From positions 1-64,000 of IMG/VR virus record IMGVR_UViG_3300031772_000014: 64,000 nucleotides of DNA; one strand, given 5' to 3'. Under the pieces are notes generated by a model. The model worked only from the letters and a program-made list of their open reading frames with translations. It searched no databases and was not told the DNA's origin. Shown here in pieces: positions 2,107 to 51,013 of the stretch. The stretch comes from a virus. The position numbers and the translations under genes were made by a program. Position 1 is the first letter of the stretch. Every line of letters begins with the position of its first letter.

Positions 2107-2634
2107 TAACTGACGCCAGCCCTGCATCATGCGGAGCTTGCCACCATTGGCTGCGGGCAGGCGAGTGACGTACCCGACCACCGGCTGGGGATCCGCCGCG
2201 CCACCATGGCCGACGATGCCGGAGAACTTGCGACCACCGAAGGTGATCGTTCCGACCTTGAGGGGCTGCATGACCGCCGTGATGGCAGCGCCGCCGGCGC
2301 CCACGACCGCCGTGGAGTCGAAGATGCGGGTGTCGGCCTCGTACTGCCCGAGGAAGAGCACGACGGTCTTCGTGCCCGCGATGGCCTGCACGTCGTAACG
2401 TCCGCGCTCCGCGAAGAGCGGGAACGAACGCACGAGGGCCGGGTCCAGACCCACCGCCACGTTGGACGCGCGGATGAGCTGGTAGCTGGCGTTGATGGTG
2501 CACCACTCGCCATCGACGAGGGCCACCGGATTGGTCGGTTGCGCCAACGTCGGATCTGCGAGGGGGAAGTCCCGCCGGTGAACCGGGAGGATATCCGAGG
2601 TGGGCTCGAAGTTGACTTTGCTGAGAGTGGACAT
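2107..2634 (-). CDS. Putative capsid decoration/cement protein (175 aa, ends at TTA)
   Basis: AAGGAG RBS and position just upstream of the capsid gene. In-frame TTA at 2109-2107; under the standard code the ORF would run 725 nt out of frame into the capsid gene. Confidence 0.6.
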
Positions 2635-2668: not shown

Positions 2669-3025
2669 TAACGACATGATGACGGACTCGAAACCCGAGA
2701 CGTCGCCACCGTGATTCTTGCCCTCGTCGGAAGACGGGGACGCGAGTTTGTTCCACATGTCTGGACCGACCATGTCGACCGCCGCTCGTACGTTCTCGAG
2801 CTGCCCGGCATGTGCCTTCTTCTCGAGGGTTTCGATCAGTGACTCGGTCGGCTCATCGCTCAGCCCTTTGCGCTGCATCTCGGATGCGATTTTCTCGCAG
2901 TCCTGACGCAGCTCGAGGCGAGCTACTTTCTCTCGGAGCTCGTCCCGCTCTGCGGTGACGGCCCGAAGCTGTACGGCAGCTTCCTTGGCCAAACCTGCGA
3001 CCTTCGCCTGGTTGAGCTTCTCCAT
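2669..3025 (-). CDS. Putative scaffold-like coiled-coil head protein (ends at TTA; standard TAA at 2651)
   Basis: Starts MEKLNQAK after GGAGG. Coiled-coil with K-x-A motifs; ends FESVIMS-TTA. Confidence 0.55.
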
Positions 3026-7916: not shown

Positions 7917-9248
7917 TCAGTACCCGTACCCCTGTCCACCGAACTGACCCCCGCCGAACTGACCCATGGGGTTGTACCTCGACTGAAGCCCCGCCTGGTA
8001 CATGTCGTTCTGGGCCGTGCCTGGGACGTACGACTTGAGCTTCTGCATCCCCGGACTATCCCCCGCCGCATCCATGTGCTGAAGGGCCCGGATCCCGACC
8101 GCCGCCGCGGCGGCATGGGGGATGTGCTTCACGACCGTCTCGGTGGCCCCGCGCATGCTCTTCGCGTGCTCGTGGCCCTTCCCGAAGAGGATGTCGCCTG
8201 CACCTTCCGCGATGTTACCCGCGGTCGGGGCGGCATTGTCGGCAAAGAAGTCACGGATGTGCTGGACCGTACCCTTCGGCGGTGGGGCCTTGGGCTTCAT
8301 CCCGACCAAGCTTCGCAGACGATCCGTCCACCCAGCCAGCTTGGTCGCGTCGCCGGTGTCGTGCAGGAACTCGTCCATGTCGGCCAAGCAGGCACCGGCC
8401 TCGTCACGGCTCGAGCGGATCTCCGCCAGCTTCTCCAGGGCCACAGAGTGCCCGGCGAAGAGGTACATGAGCGGGTGGTCCTGGTTGACCACGCGCTGGT
8501 TCCCGACCTTCTCGATGGAAGCCCCGAGGGCGTCGAACGAGGGGAACACGCCCTGCTCGACGAGCTTCGAGGAGATCTTCTCGAACGCGGCCTTCACGAA
8601 GATGGGCTCGTCCGTGACCGTGCTCCAGGCATACACGATGTCCCCGAGCGGCACGCCCTCCATGGCCGCCTGCTTCACCGCACCCGCGAGCTCCTCCCCG
8701 ATCTCCTGGTAGATGGTCTCGAGACCGCTCATCTCCGAGGTCCAGTGGTCGTACATCCCGGCCAGCTTCTCTCGGAAGTCGTAAGCCGCCCGGAAGGGCT
8801 CGGCCTGATCCATGACCACCGGCTTCTCGGGAGCGAACATCCCCCAGAACTCTTCGTCCCGATGCGCGGACGCCCGCTTCTCCCTAGGGGCCGAGGCGTA
8901 GTCGGAGTGCCCGACGTCGAAGACCGTGCCCCCACCGCCGTCGTTCAGGTCCTTGATGATCTGCGACGTGTCCGCTGGACCTCCACGGAACTCGATGATC
9001 TTGTGGCTGCCCTCCTTCTTGAAGTCGCTCAGGTACGCGGCCGTGTTCGTGAACTCGACCACCCGGCGAACCTGCTCTGGAGACAGCCCTGCGTGCTTCA
9101 CGATGGACACGACCGAGTCGCTCAGGTTCGGGGCTACGCCGTTGGCCACGTCGGCTGCGGCTTTCTTGCCCATTGCTTCCAGCTCTTCACCGGAGACAGA
9201 ACGAGAATGGGACTGTTGAAGCGACCACTGGGCGGGAAGATCGTGCAT
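7917..9248 (-). CDS. K-x-A motif virion protein
   Basis: 443 aa with a GGAG RBS. Contains VKHAG, EKRAS, EKLAG, VKQAA and TKLAG. Confidence 0.6.
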   Translation of the reverse strand: MHDLPAQWSLQQSHSRSVSGEELEAMGKKAAADVANGVAPNLSDSVVSIVKHAGLSPEQVRRVVEFTNTAAYLSDFKKEGSHKIIEFRGGPADTSQIIKDLNDGGGGTVFDVGHSDYASAPREKRASAHRDEEFWGMFAPEKPVVMDQAEPFRAAYDFREKLAGMYDHWTSEMSGLETIYQEIGEELAGAVKQAAMEGVPLGDIVYAWSTVTDEPIFVKAAFEKISSKLVEQGVFPSFDALGASIEKVGNQRVVNQDHPLMYLFAGHSVALEKLAEIRSSRDEAGACLADMDEFLHDTGDATKLAGWTDRLRSLVGMKPKAPPPKGTVQHIRDFFADNAAPTAGNIAEGAGDILFGKGHEHAKSMRGATETVVKHIPHAAAAAVGIRALQHMDAAGDSPGMQKLKSYVPGTAQNDMYQAGLQSRYNPMGQFGGGQFGGQGYGY

Positions 9249-9287
9249 GTCTCGCTCCTATGTCAGAAACTCCTAAAGGAATAGCAC

Positions 9288-10007
9288 ATGAATGGCGCCA
9301 AACAGAAGCGTGAGACCGGAGAGCTCGTAACCCAAACGGAGGCCGCGAAGCTACTGGGCGTGCCTCCGAAAGCCGTCCTTCGCTTGATTGAAAGGGGAAT
9401 CCTGGAGCCTGTAGCCCAGCGAGGGACCAAGAGGTGGTTCGACCTTCGAGACGTTTCCGCCGCTTCAGATGCCCTCGAGCAGAAGCTCAGCTTCGCAGGA
9501 ATCCTCGAGACGAGCGTACGTGCTCACACGGCCGCTACCAGGGTCGAACGCAAGATCAACGCCCTCATGGAGTTCTTCGGGATGGAGACACTTCAGCCAC
9601 AACCCACGAAGCCACAGGTCGAGGCTCACTTCGCCCAAGGTGACCGACTGGCCCTTGGGAGCGAGTCGCTATCCCCAGCGGACATGATGCGCTGGGCGAA
9701 GATCATCATGCGGATCGACAGCTCTTACCTGACCCTCGTGGGGCACTACCTCAAGAAGAAGGAACCATGGGTGGTCTTCCTTCTGGGAACCGACCGAGCA
9801 CTCAGGGCGGTCCCCATCGAGCAGATGCAGGACGACCCCGACACCGTGATGGCCGTCTCAATGCTCTCGTACGCGAGAAAGTGCCTGGTGGGTGAGGCGT
9901 ACATCTACTGCCGGTTCACGCTCGGAAGGCAGAAGGCCGACATCAAGTTCCCCGACAACGCTCGAGGAGAGATGAACGACATCATCGGGGCCCTTCTTCG
10001 TTCGTAA
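9288..10007 (+). CDS. HTH (MerR/excisionase-like) DNA-binding protein
   Basis: N-terminal VTQTEAAKLLGVPPKAVLRLIERGILEP..RWF winged-HTH pattern; AAGGA RBS. Confidence 0.65.
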   Translation: MNGAKQKRETGELVTQTEAAKLLGVPPKAVLRLIERGILEPVAQRGTKRWFDLRDVSAASDALEQKLSFAGILETSVRAHTAATRVERKINALMEFFGMETLQPQPTKPQVEAHFAQGDRLALGSESLSPADMMRWAKIIMRIDSSYLTLVGHYLKKKEPWVVFLLGTDRALRAVPIEQMQDDPDTVMAVSMLSYARKCLVGEAYIYCRFTLGRQKADIKFPDNARGEMNDIIGALLRS

Positions 10008-11834
10008 CCCCTGCCAGAGGGGTCCCGTGTACATCGACTGGATGCCACCTCGATGCTGATCCTCTCGGAGAGGCGCGATGACGTCGGGCCGAGGGAAGCG
10101 GATCATCGAAGCCAGGAAGCAGTAGAGCACCGAGTGGAATGCATCGTCGGTTCGATCCTGCCGGTGGTTGTACTGCGTGATCCTGAGCTGCTCGTTGTAC
10201 TCCGAGAAGATGTTCGTGAAGTCCTTCCCGTAAGGCTCCTGGAACTCCTCCCACCTCGGAAGTTCGAGGACGTTCCCACGCTTGATGGCGTTGAAGATGT
10301 CGCTCATGACCTCGCTCCGGGCGACCTTGTACCGGCGGAACTTCTGGTCGTACTCGACCTTCTTCCGGATGCGCTGCATGTACTGAAACTTCGCCAGGCG
10401 CTGCGGCCCGAACTTCCGGGTGATGATGTCGTTCATGTGGAAGCCGCCGCCGTAGTCGGCTCCGATGATCATCACCTTGAACTTCTCGAGGATGTTGAGG
10501 ATGAGCTCCGTTTGGTACGGGATCTCCAGCTCCTGTCCCTCGAAGCGGTGGATGTAGAAGATCCTGAACGTGTTCCCCACCGCGTAAGTCCCGAGGCTGA
10601 TCACCGTGTAGCTGTTCTCACCGGTGCCCCAGTCGATGCCAGCGAAGACCGGGTTCTGGTACCCCGGGGGCTCGTACTTGGACATGCCTTCGTCCGTCAT
10701 CGTGGACTGCGCGTTGCAGCAAGCCTGGACCTGAGCGCTGCTAAGCGGACGTAGACCAGAGTCGAATGAAAGACCCAAGACCTCGTTGAAGAACTTGTCC
10801 CGTGGGTAGCGGCGGTAGTCGAGCGTGATCTCTTCCCATGGCTTCCAAGGAACCATGAGCTGGGAGATCCGGTAGCTCTCGAAGACCGCGTCCGGGCTCG
10901 CGTGCGCCCACGCGGCATCGGCGTGCTGGGGGAAGATCTGCTTCCCGCACTTCTCGCAGATGAGCGAGTCCTTCCCGATGTTGCGCTCACCGAGGATGTT
11001 CCAGAAGCGCCCCGCCCCGCCCTTGACGGTGGACCCGCAGGAGTCACAGGGGACCGCCCACTCCCCCTGAGTGGACATCGCCTGCCCTCGAGCCACGCCA
11101 GAACGGTAGAACTCGATGTTGTTGTCGAGGCTCTTCGGGGTGCCGGCGTAGATGAACTGCTTCAGGTTCTCGGGGGCGTGGCTGGTACACTGCTCGATGA
11201 CGGGGATGTTGTCCGAGAGAAGGTCTTGGAACTCATCGCACTCCAGCATGTACGCCGGGATACCTCGGGTTCGGTCGGCGTTCAGGAAGGCGTTGCGGAG
11301 CGTGATCTTGGAGAAGTTGTTGAACTGCTTCTCGAAGATGTTCTGCGCCATCATGTGGGCCGCGAAGGACTTCAACGTCGGGCTCGTCTCGATGGGCTCC
11401 TTGATTCGGTCGTTCGAGAACGTCTTCGTCTGGGTGCTCGTCGGGGAGACGTAGAGCGTCTTGTACCCAGGGATGAGGCACGAGAGCGAGACGGCCTTGT
11501 TCCCGAGGAAGGTCGACTTCTCAACCTGTCGAGCGCAGAAAAGAAAGATGCGCCGCGCCGGCGTGTTGTAGATCGGGATCATGTGCCGACGACCCTCGAA
11601 CGAGAAGTTCTCGTACGAGAGACCATCGGTCGTGGGCATCCTGAAAGCGAACTCAGTGAAGTGCGAAAGCATCACTGAAGCAGGAGGCTCTTCCTTCCTC
11701 TTCCCTCGAGGAATGAAGAAGGGGTTTACCTTCTGGTGCCTCCACTCGGAAGGAAACCACTCGGTGAAAGAAGCCGAATCCTCCGAGTCGTCCGTGTCTT
11801 CCAGGTCTGCTTTACTGAACGTCGCATCGTCCAT
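10005..11834 (-). CDS. Terminase large subunit (ends at TTA)
   Basis: Walker A-like ARQVEKST, Walker B DEFQD, GTPK motif III, CxxC pairs, and nuclease motifs AGIDWG and DDAFHS. Start is uncertain (11834, 11870 or 11912). Confidence 0.85.
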
Positions 11835-11868
11835 GTATTCAAACCCACCTAGGTATCCCGAGCTAGTC

Positions 11869-12159
11869 ATGTTCCCACCAAAGTCTACCGAGGATCCCAC
11901 AGAAGCCGTCAAAGGGCTCTGGGAAAGTATCTCGAGGGCTGGCGGTCATCTCAGCGACCAGGCCATCAGCGAACCCACCGAGCATGGGATGAAGTTCGTG
12001 ATCCGACTTGCTGAAGCCTTCACGGAAGACGGAAAGAGGTACGCCTTCGGGTTCATGAAAGCGTACCTCTTGGAGTGCGGGTGGAGGGCCAGCCGCATGA
12101 AGGTGGAGGCGAACGGCTACGTGACGTTCGAGGTCAGACCGGCCTCGAGGGCACGGTAG
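11869..12159 (+). CDS. Small hypothetical protein
   Basis: MFPPKSTED..., 96 aa. Fills the gap between two minus-strand genes and has protein-like composition. Confidence 0.45.
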   Translation: MFPPKSTEDPTEAVKGLWESISRAGGHLSDQAISEPTEHGMKFVIRLAEAFTEDGKRYAFGFMKAYLLECGWRASRMKVEANGYVTFEVRPASRAR

Positions 12160-13489: not shown

Positions 13490-15736
13490 TCAGTTCTGCT
13501 GGAAGGCAATCATCTTGAGGCCGTCGATGGTCTCCTCAAGAGAGCGGATGCAGCGTTCGACGGCGTACTCGGGGATCTCCCGAACGCCCATGCGGGATGC
13601 GATGAGCAGCTCACACAGGTGCTCCTGAGCCTCGTTCAAGGCTGGCAGGTAGGACACGAACGCCATGAGGTTCTCGGGGTTCAGGAACCCGAGGCTCAGC
13701 ACGGCATCCACCGCCATGGGATCCGGGATCACCGCGGCCTCTTTGGTGAGGTCGTGGCGAACCGGAGTCCGTGCGGCGACCTTGCTGAAAGATGCACGGG
13801 CGTCCTGCATGCGGTCTTCGTAGCTCTGGATTGCTCGAGCGACCTTCACGGAGACCGGGCGACCTTCCGAGATCGACTGCCCGAGCTTCGCCATCGCGTA
13901 GCTGGGAGCCACCCCCAGACCCGCTAGGACGAAGAGCGCCTGGTCGAGGTTGACCATGCTCTTTTCGGAGGACGCGACCTTCGACAAGGACGCCCCATCG
14001 ATGGAGAACACGCCGGCGTCGGAACCACGGACCACCACCTCAGCCAGGATGGAGTGCGCCGCGGCTTCCTTGCTGAACTCCTCCGGGTGGCTCGCCAACG
14101 AGACCTGCTCGGTCTCATCGAGCGGCATCCACTCGAAGTTCTCGGGGACGATGAGGGTGCCCTCGTCCACCTGCGTGACCTTCCGAACTCCAGGCTGCTG
14201 GAGGATCTCCACGGTGGTCCCATCCATGAGCTCCGCCATGAGCCCGACCCCGCGGTCCCCACGGGACTCGCCCTTCAGGGCCGCCTTGACGTGCATTGGC
14301 ACCATGGCCTGAAGACGACCATTCGGGAGGGTCTCGACGAACGTCCCATACCCGCGGGGATGTCCGGTCATGAAGTTGGCCCCGGTGCCCGCGTGGACGC
14401 CGACGATCTCCCCCTGAAGGGCGGTCTGGGACCCGTTCGTGAACAGAGCCAGGGGCACCGAGGCGCCCGTCACGTCGATGAGGTTCGGGAACACGTACCC
14501 GATGATGTGCGCGCCCTTCTCGTCCTGGACCTTGTAGATCCCAAAGTCTTTGATGAGCTCCGGGTGATCCCCCTCGGGATCGTCCGCGCTCACCTCGACA
14601 TCGCCCATCGTGGCCCCGCCGGTCTTGTCGATGGCCAGCGCCATCTCGGGGCCCACGATGCCCACGAGCTGCCCGCGGTCCACCATCTTCTCCACGGGCG
14701 CCCAAGCGAGGTGGCTCGCGGTCTTCACGCAGTACCCGCCGGCCGTCTTGTTGATCTGGATCACCGAAGGCTTGATCCCCGCCGCGTAGCTCGCCATCTT
14801 CTCGCGAGGATTCGACGGCTCGTACCCCGAGAGGGAGTTGAGCGCCGGCTGCGTGGCGTTCTTGTTGGCCACGTACGCGGCCTTCATGAGCGGGGAGGAC
14901 ACCTGCCCGATGAAGCGGTCGAAGTCCGTGGCGTGGATGCTTGGCAGGATGCTGCCCAGAATGCCCCAACCCGCGTGCTTCTTCTTCAAAGAAGCGTTGC
15001 TGTTCACCGCGGCATCAACAGCATCTTCGGGGTGTCGACCGTACAGGTGCACGGTGCCCTTCTGCGTCGTCGCCGACCCATCACGCATCGTCCGCGCCAC
15101 GTTCTCGGCGGTGTGGCCCGGCGGTCCTCCCTTGCTTGCCTTACGGGCCGCCATCTCTCCGAAGTCCTCTGCCTTCACGACCCCAGACTTGAGAGCACGC
15201 TGCCACGCAGCCGAGCCTTCCTTGCCCATGCCGGCGCTGACCGTCGAGCCACCGCCGCCGAAGCCGTTGTTCTGTCGGTACGGCGGGTAGAGGGTCGAGA
15301 TGATGCTCTGGTCGCCGGGCGTCCTCGAGGTCACATCGAACATCTGCGGGCGGAAGAGCGCCAGGCGCAGACGCTTCTCGTTCAGGGGGAGCATCTTCGA
15401 GTCCTCCGTGACGAGCGTGTCGAAGGGCTTCATCTTCCCCTCGCGGATGATGATCGGGATGCGGACGTGGTGGATGCCTCCCACCTGCTCGCCGGCGGAG
15501 CCGGGGCCGCTCTGGATCTCGGTCTTGTTGCCGATCTCCACGTGCCCGAACCCGAAGGCTCGCTCGGCGTCGATGCGGTCCATCACGACGTCGGGGCTGA
15601 AGTCGGCCACGTACGGGTGCTGCTTGTAGAGCTCCTGGAGCACTTCGTTCTGCCACTGGTTCGGGTCTTCGGGCAGGGTGACTTCCGCGGCGGAGACCTT
15701 CTCGAAGTCGAGCTGGGAGTCGATGAACAGGTCCAT
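13490..15736 (-). CDS. Large K-x-A motif virion protein
   Basis: 748 aa with a GGAG RBS. Contains EKMAS, VKTAS, SKEAA, SKVAS, SKVAA and TKEAA. Confidence 0.6.
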   Translation of the reverse strand: MDLFIDSQLDFEKVSAAEVTLPEDPNQWQNEVLQELYKQHPYVADFSPDVVMDRIDAERAFGFGHVEIGNKTEIQSGPGSAGEQVGGIHHVRIPIIIREGKMKPFDTLVTEDSKMLPLNEKRLRLALFRPQMFDVTSRTPGDQSIISTLYPPYRQNNGFGGGGSTVSAGMGKEGSAAWQRALKSGVVKAEDFGEMAARKASKGGPPGHTAENVARTMRDGSATTQKGTVHLYGRHPEDAVDAAVNSNASLKKKHAGWGILGSILPSIHATDFDRFIGQVSSPLMKAAYVANKNATQPALNSLSGYEPSNPREKMASYAAGIKPSVIQINKTAGGYCVKTASHLAWAPVEKMVDRGQLVGIVGPEMALAIDKTGGATMGDVEVSADDPEGDHPELIKDFGIYKVQDEKGAHIIGYVFPNLIDVTGASVPLALFTNGSQTALQGEIVGVHAGTGANFMTGHPRGYGTFVETLPNGRLQAMVPMHVKAALKGESRGDRGVGLMAELMDGTTVEILQQPGVRKVTQVDEGTLIVPENFEWMPLDETEQVSLASHPEEFSKEAAAHSILAEVVVRGSDAGVFSIDGASLSKVASSEKSMVNLDQALFVLAGLGVAPSYAMAKLGQSISEGRPVSVKVARAIQSYEDRMQDARASFSKVAARTPVRHDLTKEAAVIPDPMAVDAVLSLGFLNPENLMAFVSYLPALNEAQEHLCELLIASRMGVREIPEYAVERCIRSLEETIDGLKMIAFQQN

Positions 15737-16381: not shown

Positions 16382-17698
16382 TAAGGCCATGACAGCCGGA
16401 TTGCCGGTCGTGATTGAACCAACCGCCGGGGTCGCAATCGTGATGACGCCCGTGAAAGGCGAACCGTTCAAGAGCCCAGATACCTGCGCGACCGGGATCA
16501 CGATGGCCACGCTGTCGCCCATACGGGCCACGGGCTGCGTGCCTGACCCAAGACGAATCTGATCTCCAGATACCTCCGTGAGCGCTTGCCCGCCCACGAC
16601 CATGCTGGTCTTGGCCTTCAACTCTGCGTTGTCGAACGCCAAGGAGAGGCTGCCGGCACCCTTGAGCGAGAGACCCTTCTTGAAGTCGATCACGCACCCG
16701 CCCTCGGACCTGATGAAGACCCCGCCGGCCCGGTCCATGATGAAGTGCATGGTCATCTGCTTGGCCACCGCGGGGTTCGCCAGGTCTCCGGTACCGGCCT
16801 TGAAGCCACCTGGCGCGATGACGACCTCCATGACGACCGGGGCCGTGGTCCCGATACCGGCGTTCTGGAGGTCGCTCGTCGAGTCACCGAAGAACGTGCT
16901 CCCTACCTTGGGTGGCTCCGTGACGGGGTTGAGGACCTTGCCCTTCGCGATGCGGATGTCGCAGAACTGATCGTTGGCGAAGAGCCGATAGGTCTCCATG
17001 TGCTGTGCGGCCGGGTTGTCGATGGATGGTCCTTCCTGGATCCCCCACTTGATGGCCCCGCCCACGTTCTGGTGCTCGTAGTCCCCGGACACGTCGAAGA
17101 TCTTGTTCGCGAGCGGGATGTAGATGCGCTGCGCCAAGCTCGAGCCGCCGATCTGAAGAACGCCGCCTCGATGAAGGATGACGAAGTTCCCGTCACGTCC
17201 CTTCATGAACACGTCGCCCGGCTTTATCTCCGGCCTACCGCCATCGAAGCGGGCGTCGTTATGCGGGAACTCCACCTTGCCGCTGCGGGAGCGTGTGCCC
17301 TGCGGGGCGTCGGTACCGGTCAGGTCACCCTGGTCCACGAGCTGATTGCTCTTGATGGACGTCGTGATGGCATCGTCAGGATTCCCGAGCGGCTTGGACG
17401 TGTTGCCAGCCTGCTGCATCGGCATGATGAACGAGTTCACGAACGGCGGAGACGAATCGCTGGGGATGCACACGAAGCACACCGCACCGACGTCAGGCAT
17501 CACGAAGATGCCCTCACCGCTGTTGTAGTGCATGTACGGCGAGCTGACCTGGATGTCGTAGTAGTAGTGCCGGTCGAACTGCGAGATGCAGTCCACGGTG
17601 TAGTTCACCAGGTTCACGTTCATGACCCGGCACTGGACCATCTTCGACGGTCGCTGCCCTTCCGACCGGCCACCGCCACCATCATACCTACGCGTCAT
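16382..17698 (-). CDS. Baseplate hub/spike protein (gp5/VgrG-like; ends at TTA)
   Basis: N-terminal OB-fold-like 'MPDVGAVCFV', beta-rich C-terminal part, and PAAR-like end PVARMGDSV...GSITTGNPAVMA followed by TTA. Confidence 0.65.
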
Positions 17699-20600
17699 AA
17701 GTACACGTGGGAGGGCACGACGTTTTCGCCCTTGGCGTTGCGAGCAAGCCGAGGAAGACCGAACTCAGCCCCGTAGACCACGCCAGGAATCGGATGGGCT
17801 CCGTGGATGCTGGAAACCATCCCCGTCGCGGCAGCTTCCGAGATGGTCGTACGGAGACGTTGATGCTGAAGGCGGGCCATCCAATCATCATGCAGAGACA
17901 AGGGGAGCATGTCGACTCCCATGAGCACTGGGCTGTGCAGGATCTGACCCTTGCCACCGGTCTTCAAGTCTCGGTTCATCTGGTTGATCACAGACGTCGG
18001 ATAGAACTCTCCCCGCATCAAGTGCGGGTGGTCGCCAGGATCTTCCACCTTCGTGATGTTCGACATCGCACGAACCATGACCTCTATGGCGCGTCGACGA
18101 ACACCTTCAGCCTTGTAGAGATCGTGGATCTCATCGGCCAGATGGTTCTGTACGTGGTCCATGCTCTTGGTCGCCTTGTAGAGATCGTGCGGGTTCACGA
18201 CCGTACGAAGCGGATCTGACAAGGAGCGCCCTGCCTCCACGTGCATCCCCACGGTCGGTGGCGTCCACAGGGCCTGACCCTTCGGCGGAATGGCTCCTGG
18301 AAGATTGATGTGAAGGTCCAGACCATTGTCGTCCTTGCCGACGAAGTGCGATGTGCCGCCGACCCAGATGCGCGTACCCGTGGACTCCTTGTCGATCTTG
18401 TCGATCTTCCCAGAGGCCATCGAGACCGTGGCGGAGTTCGGGATCTTCTTGTGCAGCTTCGTGAGCTGCTCGAAGCGAGCGAAGGAGTTCACGGCCTTTG
18501 AGCCGCCGCCAGACTCAGCAACGCCTCCCGTGTGGAAGAGCTTCAGGGTGAGCTGCACCGCCCGCTCCCCAACCGCGTGCGCGGCCTGGATGCCCACGTT
18601 GGTACCGAACTGGTGCTCCTCCCCATCGACAGAGGGCCCCATGCACTTCTGGCAGATCCCTTTCGGGCTGTCGCACTTCAGCGGACTTCGCACCAGCACC
18701 TTGGCGTTCTTGTCCACCGCACGCATCTGACCCACCAGGTCCGGGGTGACCAGCGTCCCCGCGGGGATGTGGAGCCCACCGGACCTGAAGTCTGCTGCGA
18801 GGTGCCGGTCATGCACGTCATGCTCGGAGAGCGCCATCGAGATGCCCTTCGAGGTCCCGCAGTCGTGCTTGTCGATCATGAGGTTCATCGAGGTGTTCAT
18901 CAAGAGTTTCGACATCGCGCCGGGCTCCTGGACCTCCTGGACCTTCATGACGGTTCCTCGACGAGCTCCGTGGAGCTGCGTCCAGTACTCCCCTAGGTCG
19001 AGACCTTCCGCGTAGCTGTTCTTGATCGGAACCGGGATGTTCTGGCTCTTGGAGTCCTTCATGATGAGCGGGGACATCACCATCTGCTTGTACTGGTCCC
19101 AGCTCGGCTTGGTCCCGGCGGCGGCCATCATGAACAAGTTCGAGGGGTTCTTCTTCGCCTCCTCCTTGTGCTGCGTCTGCATGTCCTCGCCGGCCTTGAG
19201 CCAGACGTTCACGGACTGCCGGTCCTTATCCTTCTCGTTGATGGTCTTGCTGCCGTTGATGGCATCCACCTTCGTCTGCGCGGCCTTGAGGATGGGGTCC
19301 CTGACCGAACGGATGGGATCGAAGTCCTTCAGGCTGAGCGAGTGCGTCCCGATGGAGAGGTGCTTGTCGGGGATGAGGTTCGTCTTGATGATCCCGTACG
19401 AGGCGTCGTACCCCAAGTCCTTCACGTCGTTGATGACTCGACCGAAGTCATGCCGGTGATCTTTGCCCAGGGTATCGAGCATGGTCACCAACCCCTTCTT
19501 GTCCACCTGGAAGTCCAAGTCATGCAGAATCTTGTTCTGCATCGGCTTCGGGAGGATGTTCGCCAAGAGCACGCGACCAGCCGTCGTCTCCTTGCCATTC
19601 AGGTGCACGATGTCCGTGTAGTCAATCTTGCCCGTGTGCAGGGCAGAAACGACCGATGCGTGGTCGGCGAACTTCTTGTCCGTCTTCTTGTCCGTCCGCG
19701 AAAGCTTGTAGAGACCCAGAGCAGACTCCAACGTGGGGCGGTACATGACCTCCCCGGAGGACTCGCTGAAGATGTTCTTCGTCGGGTACATCCTCTCGGC
19801 TTCCTTCACGGCCTCGTGGCTGATGGGGACGTAGACCGACATCGCGTCTCCGTCGAAGTCAGCGTTGAAACCACCCGTCACGAGAGGGTGGATCTTGATG
19901 GCGCTGCCTTCGACCGTCTTCGCCTTGAACGCCTGGACGGAGTACTTGTGCAGCGCAGGGTCACGCTTCAAGATGACGGGGCGCTCGCTCATGACCTGGT
20001 CGAGAGCTTTCCAGACCATCGGGTCCTTCTTCCCACGGTGCACCTCAGACAGCTTCTCCTGGGCATCGAGGGTGTGCGCGGCCGTGCCTTGCTGCACAAG
20101 CTGTCGAACCACGAACGGACGAAAGAGCGTGAGAGCGGCTTCCCTGGGAAGACCAACCTCGTCGAGCCCAAGGTTCGGCTCTGGGACGATGGTGGAGCGC
20201 ATGGTCATGTCCTGCTTGCGCTGCGCCAACGTCTTCTGGAAGTAGCCTTCCTTCGGCTGAGAGCCGGCAATAACCTCGAGGATGCCCTTCTCCTTCTTGT
20301 CCTTGTTCACGCTCCCGATGCCCATGATGGCTTTCACGCCGTCGTAGTAGGAGGTGCGCTGCTCTACCTTCCCCGCATCCGTGAGGTTCTTGGAGAGGAT
20401 GGGATCCTTGAGCTTGGTGTTGATCTGCGCGAACTTCATGTAGAGGCCGTTGATGTCCTCGTACTTGATGGCTCCCTGCTCCATCTGATTGATGGGACGG
20501 GTGTTCGGCGGCATCACGGGCAGGTTGTGGAGGATGTACGCCTCAGAGGGCTTCATCCCCAAGTCCTTGAGGACCGTGAGGTACTTCACTTTCTTGAGCG

Positions 20601-23600
20601 CTCGGTCCACGTTCCCAGGTGACGTGGACCCCAACTCGAGCTTCGCTTTCGCTAGGTCCTTGGTCACGTCGATCCTGTCGAGCAGCGTCTTGATACCGGG
20701 GCCTCCACGGACACCTGCCACGCTGGTAGTGATCTCTCCCGTCCCAGGCACGACACCCTTGGTGCCGTCGATGATGGAGTTGAACTGCTTCTGGGTGATG
20801 CCCGTGAGCTTCTTGATCGGCTCCTGGAAGAGCGGGTTCGGAAGCGCTTCCGCGAGCGCGATGTGGGACCACTTAGTCCCACCGTGACCGCCGGTCACCT
20901 TGTCATCGAACAAGCCACCAGGCATCGGCTCGTACTCACCGCTCTTGTTCGTCTTCGCCCGGACGGGTGAGTTACCAGCCGTCTTCAACTCACCCGCGGA
21001 CATGTTGAGGATGTGCTTGTCCGTCAAAGGGGAGACGTGGAACTCATGCCCCTTCTTCTCGATGTTGATGCCAGTACCTTGGAGCATCTGGGTGAAGCGG
21101 TGGAAAGCGAACGTCGGACGAGGCGGCGGCGGCGGCATCCCGTTCTGAATCGCGTTCCAGATGTCGTTGTGCTGGTTTCCTTGCGTCCATCGCTTCGCTT
21201 CGTTCGTCTGGATGTCGTTGCCCTCGGACTTCCAGGTCTGCATCTCTCGGATGTTCGCCTTCGCGCCGTGCGCGAGCATCGAGTAGAGCCCGAGAGCTCC
21301 CAGGCTCTGACCGCCGGCGTGACCGCCACCGGTAGGCTGGAGGAAGGAGTCGTACCCCTCCGCCTCGGTCAGCTTCGGCAAGCCCATCCCGGAACGTACC
21401 GAGAGCTTCTTGTCCACCTGGTGGACCAACTTCATCATGTACTGCTTGCCCACCAGAGCTTCCCCGATGGGGAGTTTCGTCATGGGATCGATCAGGTGCT
21501 CGGTGTCGCTGAGCCCGTGCTGCTTCAACTCACCCTTGACCTTCTCGAGGTAGTCCCCCGTGGTCGAGTCGAAGTTATGGACGAGGTACGGCTTGCCGGT
21601 CTTCTCGGCAATCTTGGACACAGCCGTCTCGAGCACCTGCCCGATGTTCATGCGTCCAGGGACGCCAGCAGGGTTCAGCAAAACCTCGGTGGGCTTCCCG
21701 TCTGCCGTGTGCGGCATCTCCTTGTTTGGAAGCACCAAGGTCACGATGCCCTTGTTGCCGTAGCGCCCGGCAATCTTGTCACCGACCTGCATGGGCTCGA
21801 TGGTGCGGACATGGACGGAGATGTTCTCTCCGGTCTTGTGGACCCCCACCACCTCACCCTTGAAGTCAGACGTCCACCGGACGGACTTGTCCGTGTGCTG
21901 GTTGATCATGCTCTTCCGAAGAGCCGCCACACCCGTCCGGTCCTTGAGCTGGTACGGCATCGTCGCGAGGATGAGCGGGTCACCAGACTTGACCGTGGCC
22001 CCAATCTTCACGACCCCGTGCTCATCAACGTTCTTGTACTGCTCCGCCGTGAAGGCTGTGAGGTGTTGCTGCCGGAACTTCTCCGGAGAGAACACCATCC
22101 CCTCCTTCTTCTCGACGTCATGCTTGTGCAAGTGCTCGCTGGAGAGCATCTGCGCGGCTGTCTCGCTGATGACCACCCCGTCCTCGAAGTTGTAACCCTT
22201 GAAGGGGATGTACGCGACGCGGAGGTTGGTACCCAGCGCCAACGCCCCGTTCTTCGAGTAGTTCGTGTCCGCGACGATCTGCCCAGCCTTCACCTTGTCC
22301 CCAACCTTCACGAGCGGGGTCGAGTTCATCGAGCTCTTGGCGTCGTTCAACGGGTAGTGATGGTAGAGCTGAATCTCGTGCTCGCCGTCCTTGCCCTTGA
22401 TCGTGATGCCGTCCTTCGTGATCCCTGAGACGACGCCATCCGTCCTCGAGAAGTGCGCGGTCTGCTTCCCCACCAGATGCTCGAAGGAGTTGATCCCCGT
22501 GGTGGTGGGAGGCGTGGCCACCTGGACGAGCGGTGCTTGGCGACCGATGAGGGAAATCGCCTGCTCCATGTGACGGCTGCCCATGCTCGCGCGACCACCA
22601 GAGCTGTTGCCCAGGAACGGGATGAGGTTCGAGGTGACGTTGAATAGCTGTGACGAGTGCCGGAGCACGTAGTCGGCTTCGACGAACTTCTTCTCTTCGA
22701 TCTTGTTCCCCTGCCCGACGATCTTGATCATGGGACCAGTCGGCACGGGCTTTCCGTCCTTCCAGGTCACCTGGTCCGGCAGGGCGACGTTCGAGGCGAT
22801 GAACTGGTGCGGGCTGATGTCCTCCGTCTTCCCGGTGCGGATGTTGAAGACCGGAATCTTCGCCTCGTTGCCGACCTTCTTCAAACCAATCGGCAGGCGC
22901 AGGGTCACGCCCGTCTTTTCACCCTCGGGGGTGTTGATGGGATCCAAGAAGCCGATGTGCGAGACGTTGATCATCTTCGCGTCAGCCGTCACCTGCCGGT
23001 CGCTCTTGATACCGCCCGGTCCCATGATGGTCGTCTGCATCGCCGCAGACACCATCTCGAGAGGATTGATCTGCTTGGCCGGGTTCGACAGGGCACTCTT
23101 CAAGAACAGGGTGCGGACGGGCTCGTTGAAGATGTCCGCTTTGATGACATCTCGAACCCCCGTCGCCTTGGGGTTGTTGAGCTGCCGCTGCATCTTCATC
23201 TGGATGACCTTGGAGGACACCCGCATCTGATCCTGGATGAAGTCCCCTGTGGAGCGCAGGGTCTTGAACGTCAGGGAGTCCCGGTCGTCCTCTGGGGCAC
23301 CACCGTGAAGGGCCAGCAACTTGTTGGACGCCCGGTGAAGAGCATCTCCGGTGACGTGCTCGAAAGCCTTACCCAGCGTGACCTGGGTCACGTCCGGGTT
23401 GATCTTCGACTCACCCATGACTTTGATGAGGTGGTCCTCCGCCGCTTCCTTGGAGGGAGCCGGGAGCTTGGTGGTGGTCTTGTAGAACTGCTCGACCGCA
23501 CCATCCACCCGCTTGCCCTTCTTGTTGGCCTCGAAGATCTCCTTGCCCCACGACTTCTCCAGAGCCTCGTCGCTGACACCCAACGTCTTCATCAGGGGGT

Positions 23601-24093
23601 AGAGGGGGATCTTGGCCTTCTTGTAGTCCGCGACGAAGACCTTCTTCTCCGGGTCGAAGACAACGTCGAAGGCAGAACGTCCAACGACGTTGAACCGGGA
23701 CTCGAGCTCTCCGTTCGCTCGACGCCTCGTGTAGACGCCAGGCTTGAGCTGCCACTGGTTGTCCACCTGGTACTCCTGCCCGTCCAGGATGTAGGAGTAC
23801 CGGCGGGTCATCTTCGGAAGGTCGGCCAGACGAACCTTCTTCTTGTCAAGGGTCTTGCCAGTCTCGTTGTCCTTCAACGAGAGCATCCCATGGATGGGAA
23901 CGGTCCAGCTCTTGCCGTTGATCTTGGCCTCGTGCTGCGACTTGATGTCGTCCGGGTGAAGCTTGTCGTCGATCAAGACCTCGTCGAGATGCAGCGTCGT
24001 GGTCCTACCTTTGAAGGGGAACGAGGACTTCAACCCTTCCACGGTCTTGTCCCGAAGGTGGTCGAACGCATCTTGAGGATTCAGGTAGGCCAT
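17698..24093 (-). CDS. Single-chain beta-beta' fused multisubunit DNA-directed RNA polymerase
   Basis: Beta motifs TPEG, GYNFEDG, GDKIAGRYGNKG, NPAGVPGRMNIGQ and YMMKLVH. Beta' motifs RDPALH, catalytic FNADFDGDAM, bridge helix HGARRG and trigger loop GERAVQLTLKLFHTGG. Ends TAC-TTA-TGA. Confidence 0.93.
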
Positions 24094-24156
24094 CGGTAGG
24101 AACCTCTTGGCACGGTACAGCACCGGCGAGTAGCCGAGCAAGAAGACGTGAAGATA

Positions 24157-24165
24157 GGGAACAAG
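24157..24165 (+). promoter_or_regulatory. Possible promoter motif variant GGGAACAAG
   Basis: At the start of the first plus-strand block; resembles GGGATAAG at 34177 and 39105. Confidence 0.25.
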
Positions 24166-24198
24166 AGTAGCGCAGGAACTTCACGCAAGGAGAACGCC

Positions 24199-49884: not shown

Positions 49885-50549
49885 ACGACCCATTCGCCAA
49901 GAAGCCCCACGGGGTAAGGCAGCAGGTTGCTTCCGGTGGTCTCAGCATCGGCAAGAGCGTCGGCATCGCGAACTCGAAGCTCGAAGAGATCGTGATGAAG
50001 TTCCGGACGCTCGGCGGTCCCAATGGGATCGAGGCCGACATGAAGACGAAGGGGCCGGCTGAGTTCTCGAAGCCGAGCTCGGCCCCGATGGAGATCACCC
50101 CGGAGATGCTCTCCACCACCAACCCGGACGAGCTCAGCCGAGCGCTCGCTGAGCAGAACGCCTGGCTGAACTACTACTCGCCCATGATGGCAACCGTGGA
50201 GTCCGGGCTCGCAGAGAGCGAGAACATCATCACGCTGGTCGAGGCGCAGATCCGCAAGGACATGCTCGAGATCAACAAGACCACGAACAAGGGGGAGAAG
50301 TTCTCGAAAGAAGAGATCGACGCGGAGGTACTCACGAACCCGACCTACCAGGACTGCCTTCTGGAGGTTCAGAAGATGAAGCAGTACCGGTTTCAGATCG
50401 ACGGGTACATCAACATCGCGAACAGGAACGTCCGCACGGTCTCGAGGCAAATCTCCTTGCGAGGGCAGGAGTTGGACGGGAGCAACCGGGAGGCCAACGT
50501 CGCGAAAGCGGGAGGCGGGGGTCGTCGCTACGGCCCACTGCGCGGCTAA
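49881..50549 (+). CDS. Coiled-coil protein, possibly UvsY-like recombination mediator
   Basis: Helical, ending ..TVSRQISLR; located in the recombination module. Confidence 0.45.
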   Translation: MNDPFAKKPHGVRQQVASGGLSIGKSVGIANSKLEEIVMKFRTLGGPNGIEADMKTKGPAEFSKPSSAPMEITPEMLSTTNPDELSRALAEQNAWLNYYSPMMATVESGLAESENIITLVEAQIRKDMLEINKTTNKGEKFSKEEIDAEVLTNPTYQDCLLEVQKMKQYRFQIDGYINIANRNVRTVSRQISLRGQELDGSNREANVAKAGGGGRRYGPLRG

Positions 50550-51013
50550 TGATTCGCATCGACCTCGTGGGCCTTCCGCCGTCGTCCAACAACGCCTACG
50601 TGGAACTGCCACCTATCGTGAGGGGAAAGAAAGTCATCCCCCGCGGTAGGCGGCTCTCGGCGGAAGGTGAGAAGTACAAGCGGGAGACCATCACGCACAT
50701 CGTGAGGAACTACCCGAATGAGCTCTCGCAGGTAAAGCCCGACGTTGGGTTGTTCCTGTACGTGCGCTTCTTCTTCGAGGCGCTCTACAACAAGGGGTGG
50801 CCAAAAACAGCGGAAACACGGTACAAGAGGATTGACGTTACGAACCGGGTCAAGCTCCTCGAGGACTGCGTGAAAGATGCCTGCGGCATCGATGACTCGC
50901 AGAACGAGTTCGTTCTCCTCGAGAAGCGCCAAGGCCCGGACGCGACGGTTGTATTCATCTGGAACCTAGACAAGGAGGTGCCCCCTGGACTTGACGAGCT
51001 CTCACGACTCTTA
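50549..51013 (+). CDS. RusA-like Holliday junction resolvase (ends at TTA; standard TAA at 51028)
   Basis: LPPSSNNAY, DVTNRVKLLED and GIDDS. Confidence 0.78.

Follow-up and report, generated by a model that had tools for sequence, protein, structure and literature searches.

Genetic codes in which a sense codon has become a stop codon are not known outside organelles, and a literature search found none for phages or bacteria. The search also yielded no description of UUA as a phage or bacterial stop codon, and no bacterial release factor is known to read UUA. Micrococcus luteus has unassigned codons, which are associated with ribosome stalling and with rescue or mistranslation. In recoded E. 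coli, an unassigned codon without a cognate decoder stalls ribosomes (PMC6207430). In phages, changes of code from stop to sense are described, TAG or TGA being read as an amino acid via phage suppressor tRNAs (PMC10879173). The Streptomyces phage phiHau3 has coding gaps led by UUA, and bypassing was proposed in its large terminase gene (Antonov et al. 2023, PMC10732093).

The window (the whole stretch of 64,000 nucleotides that was analysed) covers positions 1-64000 of a 75,150-nt IMG/VR record (G000), which has 11 kb more and is itself a fragment with an estimated completeness of 41%. The source is an uncultured sediment phage. As listed in Table 1, an HTH gene and a terminase gene face each other tail to tail, and the + strand at positions 9997-10015 reads ...CGT TCG TAA CCC CTG CCA.... 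It had been claimed in the initial annotation that the TAA stop of the HTH gene is the in-frame TTA of the terminase gene on the other strand, and this is exact, as read directly at 10005-10007. It had also been claimed that the terminase otherwise runs 147 nt antisense into the HTH gene, and the count agrees. The terminase ORF of 9858..11912 (-) is in frame with the triplet (10005-9858 = 147 = 49 x 3), the TTA is codon 636 of this ORF, directly after ...YTGPLWQG, and table 11 adds 48 further residues up to the TGA at 9858-9860, which makes 147 nt with the TTA counted.

Table 1. Coordinates in the window of the shared triplet, of the two genes that meet there, and of the other TTA triplets found at gene ends
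Feature	Coordinates	Strand	Basis or remark
Shared triplet	10005..10007	both	TAA stop of the HTH gene on +; in-frame TTA right after the last conserved terminase codon on -
Gene for an HTH_17/MerR-like DNA-binding protein, 239 aa, TAA stop	9288..10007	+	Pfam; L086 ortholog of equal length
Gene for a terminase large subunit, GpA type, 621 aa, then TTA	10005..11870	-	ATG 11870 to GGG 10008
48 codons and TGA added to the terminase by table 11	9858..10004	-	antisense to the HTH gene; unconserved
TTA ending the 175-aa decoration-like gene (2634..2110)	2107..2109	-	distant orthologs; L086 also TTA
TTA ending the 118-aa head-module gene	2669..2671	-	standard TAA 6 codons later; non-discriminating
TTA ending gene E (17698..16385, 438 aa)	16382..16384	-	next ATG 2 nt downstream
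TTA after ...SHVY of the fused RNA polymerase beta/beta' gene, then TGA	17698..17700	-	ortholog ends
TTA ending the RusA-like gene (50549..51010)	51011..51013	+	standard TAA 5 codons later; PHROG match
TTA ending fibre-like gene C (57443..55113, 777 aa)	55110..55112	-	C homologs; relative
TTA ending gene B (58128..57457, 224 aa)	57454..57456	-	TTAGGAGCCGCAGATG starts gene C
TTA ending fibre-like gene A (60331..58142, 730 aa)	58139..58141	-	TTAGGTATCCACCATG starts gene B

Is the shared triplet a coincidence? The product of the ORF on the - strand matches PF05876 with 49.4 bits (cut-off 25.6, E 6e-13) and is 26-28% identical to annotated terminases of phage records. With the criteria of an ATPase domain and of full-length homology both met, the gene is identified from its sequence as a GpA-type terminase large subunit, and its start is not settled (ATG 11870, ATG 11834, or TTG 11912). 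The facing gene has two borderline Pfam matches, one at the N-terminus to PF12728 (HTH_17; 27.4 bits, cut-off 27) and one to AbiEi_4 (25.4 bits, cut-off 25). Its TAA stop is taken to be authentic because the ortholog in a collinear relative (14172..14891 in locus L086 of contig G001) has the identical length of 239 aa, ending with ...ALIRT-TAG. The chance of an antisense TAA falling in frame is 1/3. The shared triplet is judged to be more than chance, because the TTA lies at the conserved C-terminus of the terminase and the HTH gene truly stops at the TAA. The HTH/terminase junction has neither a terminator-like nor a promoter-like site, and blastn of positions 9000-12000 against GenBank phages gave no match.

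The initial annotation had proposed a comparison of terminase C-termini as a check, a conserved extension being what would refute the idea. A search of 5.8 billion proteins yielded 1,799 terminase homologs. In an alignment of 20 homologs (A1), 18 end precisely at ...GPxxQG. The codon right after ...QG is a standard stop in 58 of 80 related viral loci (TAG in 37, TGA in 14, and TAA in 7); the motif could be placed in 63 of the 80, and 5 of those 63 extend 2-10 codons beyond it. TTA follows ...QG in this genome only, among the 80 loci. The 48-aa extension is conserved in no homolog of A1 or of the 80 loci, and the comparison therefore came out on the side of an end at QG. In the extension, the coding score drops from 0.21 to 0.04. 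The only homolog reading on is an ENA variant protein (P0003) that is 99% identical and has Leu at the TTA position. Its tail, of at least 85 aa, differs in length from that of the window terminase, and there are 2 changes and a lost stop in the 48 tail residues as compared with 3 changes in the 610 core residues. Given the other length and the faster change, the tail is not conserved as protein. Another TTA-ended terminase may be P0009, in which ...QG-L is followed by a tail of 27 aa. The extension is best read as untranslated in the terminase frame, and translation of the terminase end with table 23 gives a protein of homolog length. A scan of metagenomes returned the G002 contig only. Many of the terminase homologs (P0008, P0019, P0038, P0105, and others) are 900-1,100 aa long with intein and LAGLIDADG domains (PF14890 and PF14528); the window terminase gene has no intein.

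The shared triplet is one of nine in-frame TTAs that were found in gene bodies of the record (Table 1), in which TTA is very rare. All nine sit at gene ends, and the rest of the in-frame TTAs are upstream of SD and ATG starts; another 64 TTAs within genes are out of frame. When the record was annotated with four stop codons, a compact map of 69 genes was obtained, 37 of them ending with TGA, 14 with TAA, 9 with TAG, and 9 with TTA. No internal in-frame TTA was found in G000 (24.1k codons), in contig G008 of the collinear relative (27k), or in L086 (5.6k); every in-frame TTA of the three is either terminal or located upstream of an SD and ATG. This absence is not significant alone, because TTA is so rare in the family (2 in 54.7k codons of the distant relative G002), and it was dropped as a stand-alone argument. 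The case rests therefore on the terminal TTAs. Five of the nine match the stops of distant orthologs exactly, namely those of the terminase, RNA polymerase, decoration-like, spike-like (gene E), and RusA-like genes. The sites at 2669, 17698, and 51011 fit either reading, because a standard stop follows 1-6 codons later. Three junctions read TTAGG(N8)ATG or TTAGG(N7)ATG and resemble ordinary stop-SD-start junctions. The genome-wide check invited by the initial annotation, together with the swaps among TTA, TAA, and TGA in the relative (see below), was thus favourable. As a separate observation, the stops are TGA 11, TAA 9, TAG 8, and TTA 1 in + strand genes of the record and TGA 26, TAA 5, TAG 1, and TTA 8 in - strand genes. 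TAG is nearly absent in the strand block where TTA ends are common.

Outside the terminase, the decoration-like gene has five distant orthologs that stop exactly at the TTA position (four with TAA and one with TGA), and under table 11 it would run on for 257 aa across the major head protein gene. The last residue of the gene E orthologs in G002, G003, and G004 aligns with the one that precedes the TTA, and the ortholog in G008 has TTA. For the RNA polymerase gene, the sequence TTATG at 17698 makes its TTA overlap with the ATG of gene E; five orthologs end with ...HxY-stop, the window gene reads ...HVY-TTA-TGA, and the G008 gene reads ...HVY-TGA. The TTA of the RusA-like gene is aligned with a TAG stop in the G002 ortholog, and G008 has TTA. 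Pfam and PHROGs gave no match for the decoration-like gene, the 118-aa head-module gene, and genes A, B, C, D, and E. The RNA polymerase gene is an observation in itself. One gene of about 2,130-2,160 aa at 17698-24180 (-) fuses the beta part (Rpb2 domains 3 and 6) and the beta' part (Rpb1 domains 1, 2, and 5). The fused gene is kept in G002, G003, G004, G006, G007, and G008, and thus this phage family encodes a fused multisubunit-type RNA polymerase.

Three TTA ends lie in a four-gene cassette at 54087-60331 (-), which consists of fibre-like gene A, its partner B, fibre-like gene C, and its partner D. Genes A and C are paralogous over about 600 aa with 29% identity. At the end of gene C, TTAGGATCGAACATG runs in frame into gene D (55100..54087). 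Among the homologs, P0128 stops exactly at the conserved ...VP of gene C, and P0162, a homolog of gene D alone, begins with the Met of D. Five other homologs of gene C have L-G directly after ...VP, two of them continuing in frame into a D-like part and three into a non-homologous frame. Public protein sets list C-D homologs as single proteins of about 1,085 aa, and these are probably mis-called fusions, as far as their sequences tell. The B/C and C/D junctions keep the TTA at just about 50% protein identity. A homolog search with gene D alone gave no match.

Does TTA behave as a stop codon between genomes? The collinear relative consists of G001 (17 kb, ending at window position 11566) and G008 (94 kb, beginning at 11571), both from one metagenome and both fragments (9% and 50% complete, respectively). 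It is collinear with G000 at 70-84% nucleotide identity. In 48 ortholog pairs of equal length, TTA is at the stop position of both genomes in 7 pairs; 2 pairs have TTA in G000 and TGA in the relative (the terminase and RNA polymerase genes), and 6 pairs have TAA or TGA in G000 and TTA in the relative. The same standard stop is kept in 25 pairs and a different standard stop is used in 8. TTA exchanges with TAA and TGA at orthologous stops, and therefore it evolves as a stop codon. The criteria for a variant stop are met in that TTA occupies stop positions of orthologs and is exchanged with standard stops in both directions (8 exchanges and 7 shared positions); the absence of TTA from conserved sense positions is also met but is weak alone. 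More TTAGG...ATG junctions are present in G008. The relative has TTA ends on + strand genes too, three of them in G008. These data support the initial annotation in its central proposal, that UUA is a stop and that two genes share a single 3-bp stop; the evidence consists of ortholog ends and stop exchange, and the biochemistry of release remains unshown.

The junction of the two facing genes is arranged differently in the relative, where about 600 nt with two tRNA-like genes and a small ORF lie between the HTH gene and the terminase gene of G001. The two tRNA-like genes are in the gap after the HTH ortholog, at L086 14891-15090 (-), and match the Rfam tRNA family with 49.8 and 45.6 bits. Their anticodon arms are abnormal: one has a 9-nt or an odd 7-nt loop (called His-atg by ARAGORN), and the other has a GAAA tetraloop instead of an anticodon loop. 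A 97-aa ORF follows them. The whole cassette is missing from the window, where the triplet is shared.

More distant relatives served as controls. The complete genome G002, with 61% GC, has only the two TTAs mentioned above, both within genes, and one falls in well-aligned RNA polymerase sequence. In locus L018, a TTA is within the conserved DDxxH block of the terminase. Because these TTAs are inside conserved RNA polymerase or terminase sequence, TTA is interpreted as a rare sense codon in G002, L018, and the more distant relatives, and the stop trait is therefore limited to a sub-lineage. The trait differs among phages with 60-67% terminase identity. In G002, an HTH-like gene and the terminase gene overlap tail to tail on CTAG, with TAG on both strands (G002:C1:19512-19515, locus L113). 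Thus, the tight packing of the HTH/terminase pair predates the usage of TTA. G002 also has a tRNA cluster at 97285-97520 (locus L117), with Tyr-GTA, an odd tRNA with a 4-letter anticodon call (actc), and Arg-TCT, and a Gln-CTG tRNA elsewhere in the genome. No tRNA-Leu(UAA) is among the four tRNAs of this complete genome.

The reading preferred here is that translation ends at UUA in this phage and in its near relatives, with a probability of roughly 0.8. It was reached without protein or ribosome data. The main rival is a conditional, tRNA-dependent version, in which UUA terminates only while the host lacks charged tRNA-Leu(UAA), in a bldA-like manner as in Streptomyces. With the tRNA present, UUA would be Leu, extended or fused proteins such as a C-D fibre would be made, and the TTAs would serve as a sensor or a timing switch. 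For the phiHau3 terminase, a published model does tie UUA recoding to tRNA supply (PMC10732093). Moreover, the TTA, SD, and ATG share one frame at 55110, so read-through would give a clean fusion, and fused C-D calls exist in databases (P0124 and P0126). Most of the genes with TTA ends are of virion or late type, and 8/9 are on the - strand, which has almost no TAG stops. However, read-through of the terminase, the decoration-like gene, E, A, and B would only add unconserved antisense or out-of-frame tails, and + strand genes of the relative end with TTA too. I consider this version unlikely, while a leaky or conditional stop at UUA is not excluded. Ordinary stop-loss, with TTA as leucine, a real 48-aa antisense tail on the terminase, and a TAA coinciding by chance, would need nine independent losses, all to one rarest codon. 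It would also have to accommodate 7 orthologous sites kept at 70-84% nucleotide identity and 8 exchanges with TAA or TGA, a tail whose length varies between 99%-identical strains, and a head protein with a 257-aa tail. The frame is indeed open under table 11, gene callers have yielded such a protein (P0003), and a 48-codon antisense frame is estimated from codon counts to be open about 2 times in 3 in this composition. Even so, stop-loss seems quite improbable.

A shift to a hidden standard stop was also considered: the ribosome would stall at the rare UUA and slip by +1 into TAG (T-TAG), or make a short hop like that of phiHau3. TTAG is present at 5/9 sites (2107, 2669, 55110, 57454, and 58139), and at 57454 CCG flanks TTAGGAG on both sides. 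This cannot apply to the terminase and gene E sites, which read TTACGA and whose +1 frame stays open for at least 8 codons. As for a hop, there is no homologous sequence downstream to land on, since homologs simply end there, and at 55110 and 58139 there is no matching landing codon by which the frame would be restored. The criterion for a phiHau3-type bypass is not met, as terminase homologs end at ...QG and the 48 codons past the TTA match nothing. As a general account, the +1 frameshift and the hop were rejected in view of the TTACGA sites and of the homologs ending there, and I regard the idea as very improbable. Finally, an assembly or base-calling error might have turned TAA into TTA on one strand, since this is a metagenome assembly with a moderate depth of about 12-15x in the source run. 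Yet the HTH gene requires TAA at the triplet, and therefore a miscall between TAA and TTA could not save both genes at once. In Logan contigs of run X1, which is probably the source and not an independent sample, each of the five sites within 1-20 kb shows 0 differences, the sites at 17698 and 2669 are kept in contigs of two further sediment samples (X2 and X3), and a distinct ENA variant (P0003) and two other IMG/VR contigs (G001 and G008), which are separate assemblies, show the same usage. Two special forms of error were rejected: the insertion of a single T in TAG would fit the TTAGG sites but not TTACGA, and a strand-specific artefact is ruled out by the + strand site at 51011 and the three + strand TTA ends in G008. 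An artefact is hardly conceivable.

How might UUA end translation? The following scheme goes beyond the data at several steps. UUA may have been nearly purged from the coding sequence of the family beforehand, which fits the codon-capture route, and in the infected cell it is inferred to be a codon without effective tRNA-Leu(UAA). The ribosome on the terminase mRNA would stop at the TTA of 10007-10005, so that the protein ends with ...PLWQG. Since TTA on one strand is TAA on the other, this 3-bp site doubles as the TAA of the HTH gene. Thus, the convergent genes would abut with a shared stop, with no spacer and no real overlap, and it is most likely that the triplet ends both the terminase gene and the facing regulator gene. 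A host factor might then free the chain at UUA. It could be either a rescue-type hydrolase or a class-I release factor whose reading of the second base is relaxed; this release step is inferred, not shown. The Shine-Dalgarno sequence of the next gene often overlaps the TTA (TTAGGAG...ATG), as at normal stop-start junctions, and the TTA is inferred to be kept under selection at gene ends. ARAGORN found no tRNA gene in G000 or G008 and only the two aberrant tRNA-like ones in G001, the available DNA being fragmentary. No RF-1 domain was found in G000, G001, G008, and G002, the first three of which are fragments. The search of genome contigs for clues to the host gave nothing but mis-binned relatives, in MAGs of Deltaproteobacteria, Myxococcales, Burkholderiales, and other groups, and no host call was made. 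That UUA is a true fourth stop codon of the bacterium-phage system, recognized by a dedicated hydrolase or by a release factor, is a stronger claim, and I find the odds on it even.

If true, this would be the first sense-to-stop reassignment outside organelles, and the natural codes would gain one in a bacterial-type system. A palindrome-like TAA/TTA triplet could then end two convergent genes, which is impossible in the standard code. If UUA ends translation, the question is raised of what releases the peptide there. The trait may reflect a host where UUA goes undecoded, and its variation at 60-67% terminase identity could be used to work out the time of the change and the hosts in which it happened. 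A practical consequence concerns gene annotation. Standard gene callers give wrong proteins for such phages, such as false-tailed terminases (P0003), a head protein with a false extension of 257 aa, and ORFs of about 1,100 aa that join fibre genes (P0124 and P0126), and such errors are already in public protein databases.

The system resembles phiHau3 in that a very rare UUA is a decoding signal in the terminase gene of a GC-rich phage, with an SD-like sequence adjoining. In phiHau3, the UUA is internal, and 7-10 nt later the coding sequence continues in another frame (PMC10732093). In contrast, the protein of the present phage appears to be complete at UUA, where the homologs end, and nothing resumes. 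As in the stop-to-sense phages, genes are mis-called by table 11 and the code feature varies between close phage lineages. The direction is the opposite, from sense to stop, and the search for tRNA genes gave none for G000 and G008 and only the two aberrant tRNA-like ones for G001. The effect of table 11 also differs, in that it produces over-long or fused ORFs here and fragmented ORFs in the stop-to-sense phages. The state inferred for UUA in the host, a stalling codon without a decoder, is like that of recoded E. coli and Micrococcus luteus. There, stalling leads to tagging, degradation, or misreading and not to clean, selected protein ends, whereas here the codon seems to be kept under selection at gene ends. 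The closest likeness in meaning is NCBI table 23 of Thraustochytrium mitochondria, where TTA is a stop: the codon is the same, and so would be its new meaning. Unlike table 23, the present case concerns the translation of a bacterium and its phage, in a GC-rich genome where all three standard stops are still used. As in organellar codes, a rare codon of a biased genome reappears only at the ends of genes.
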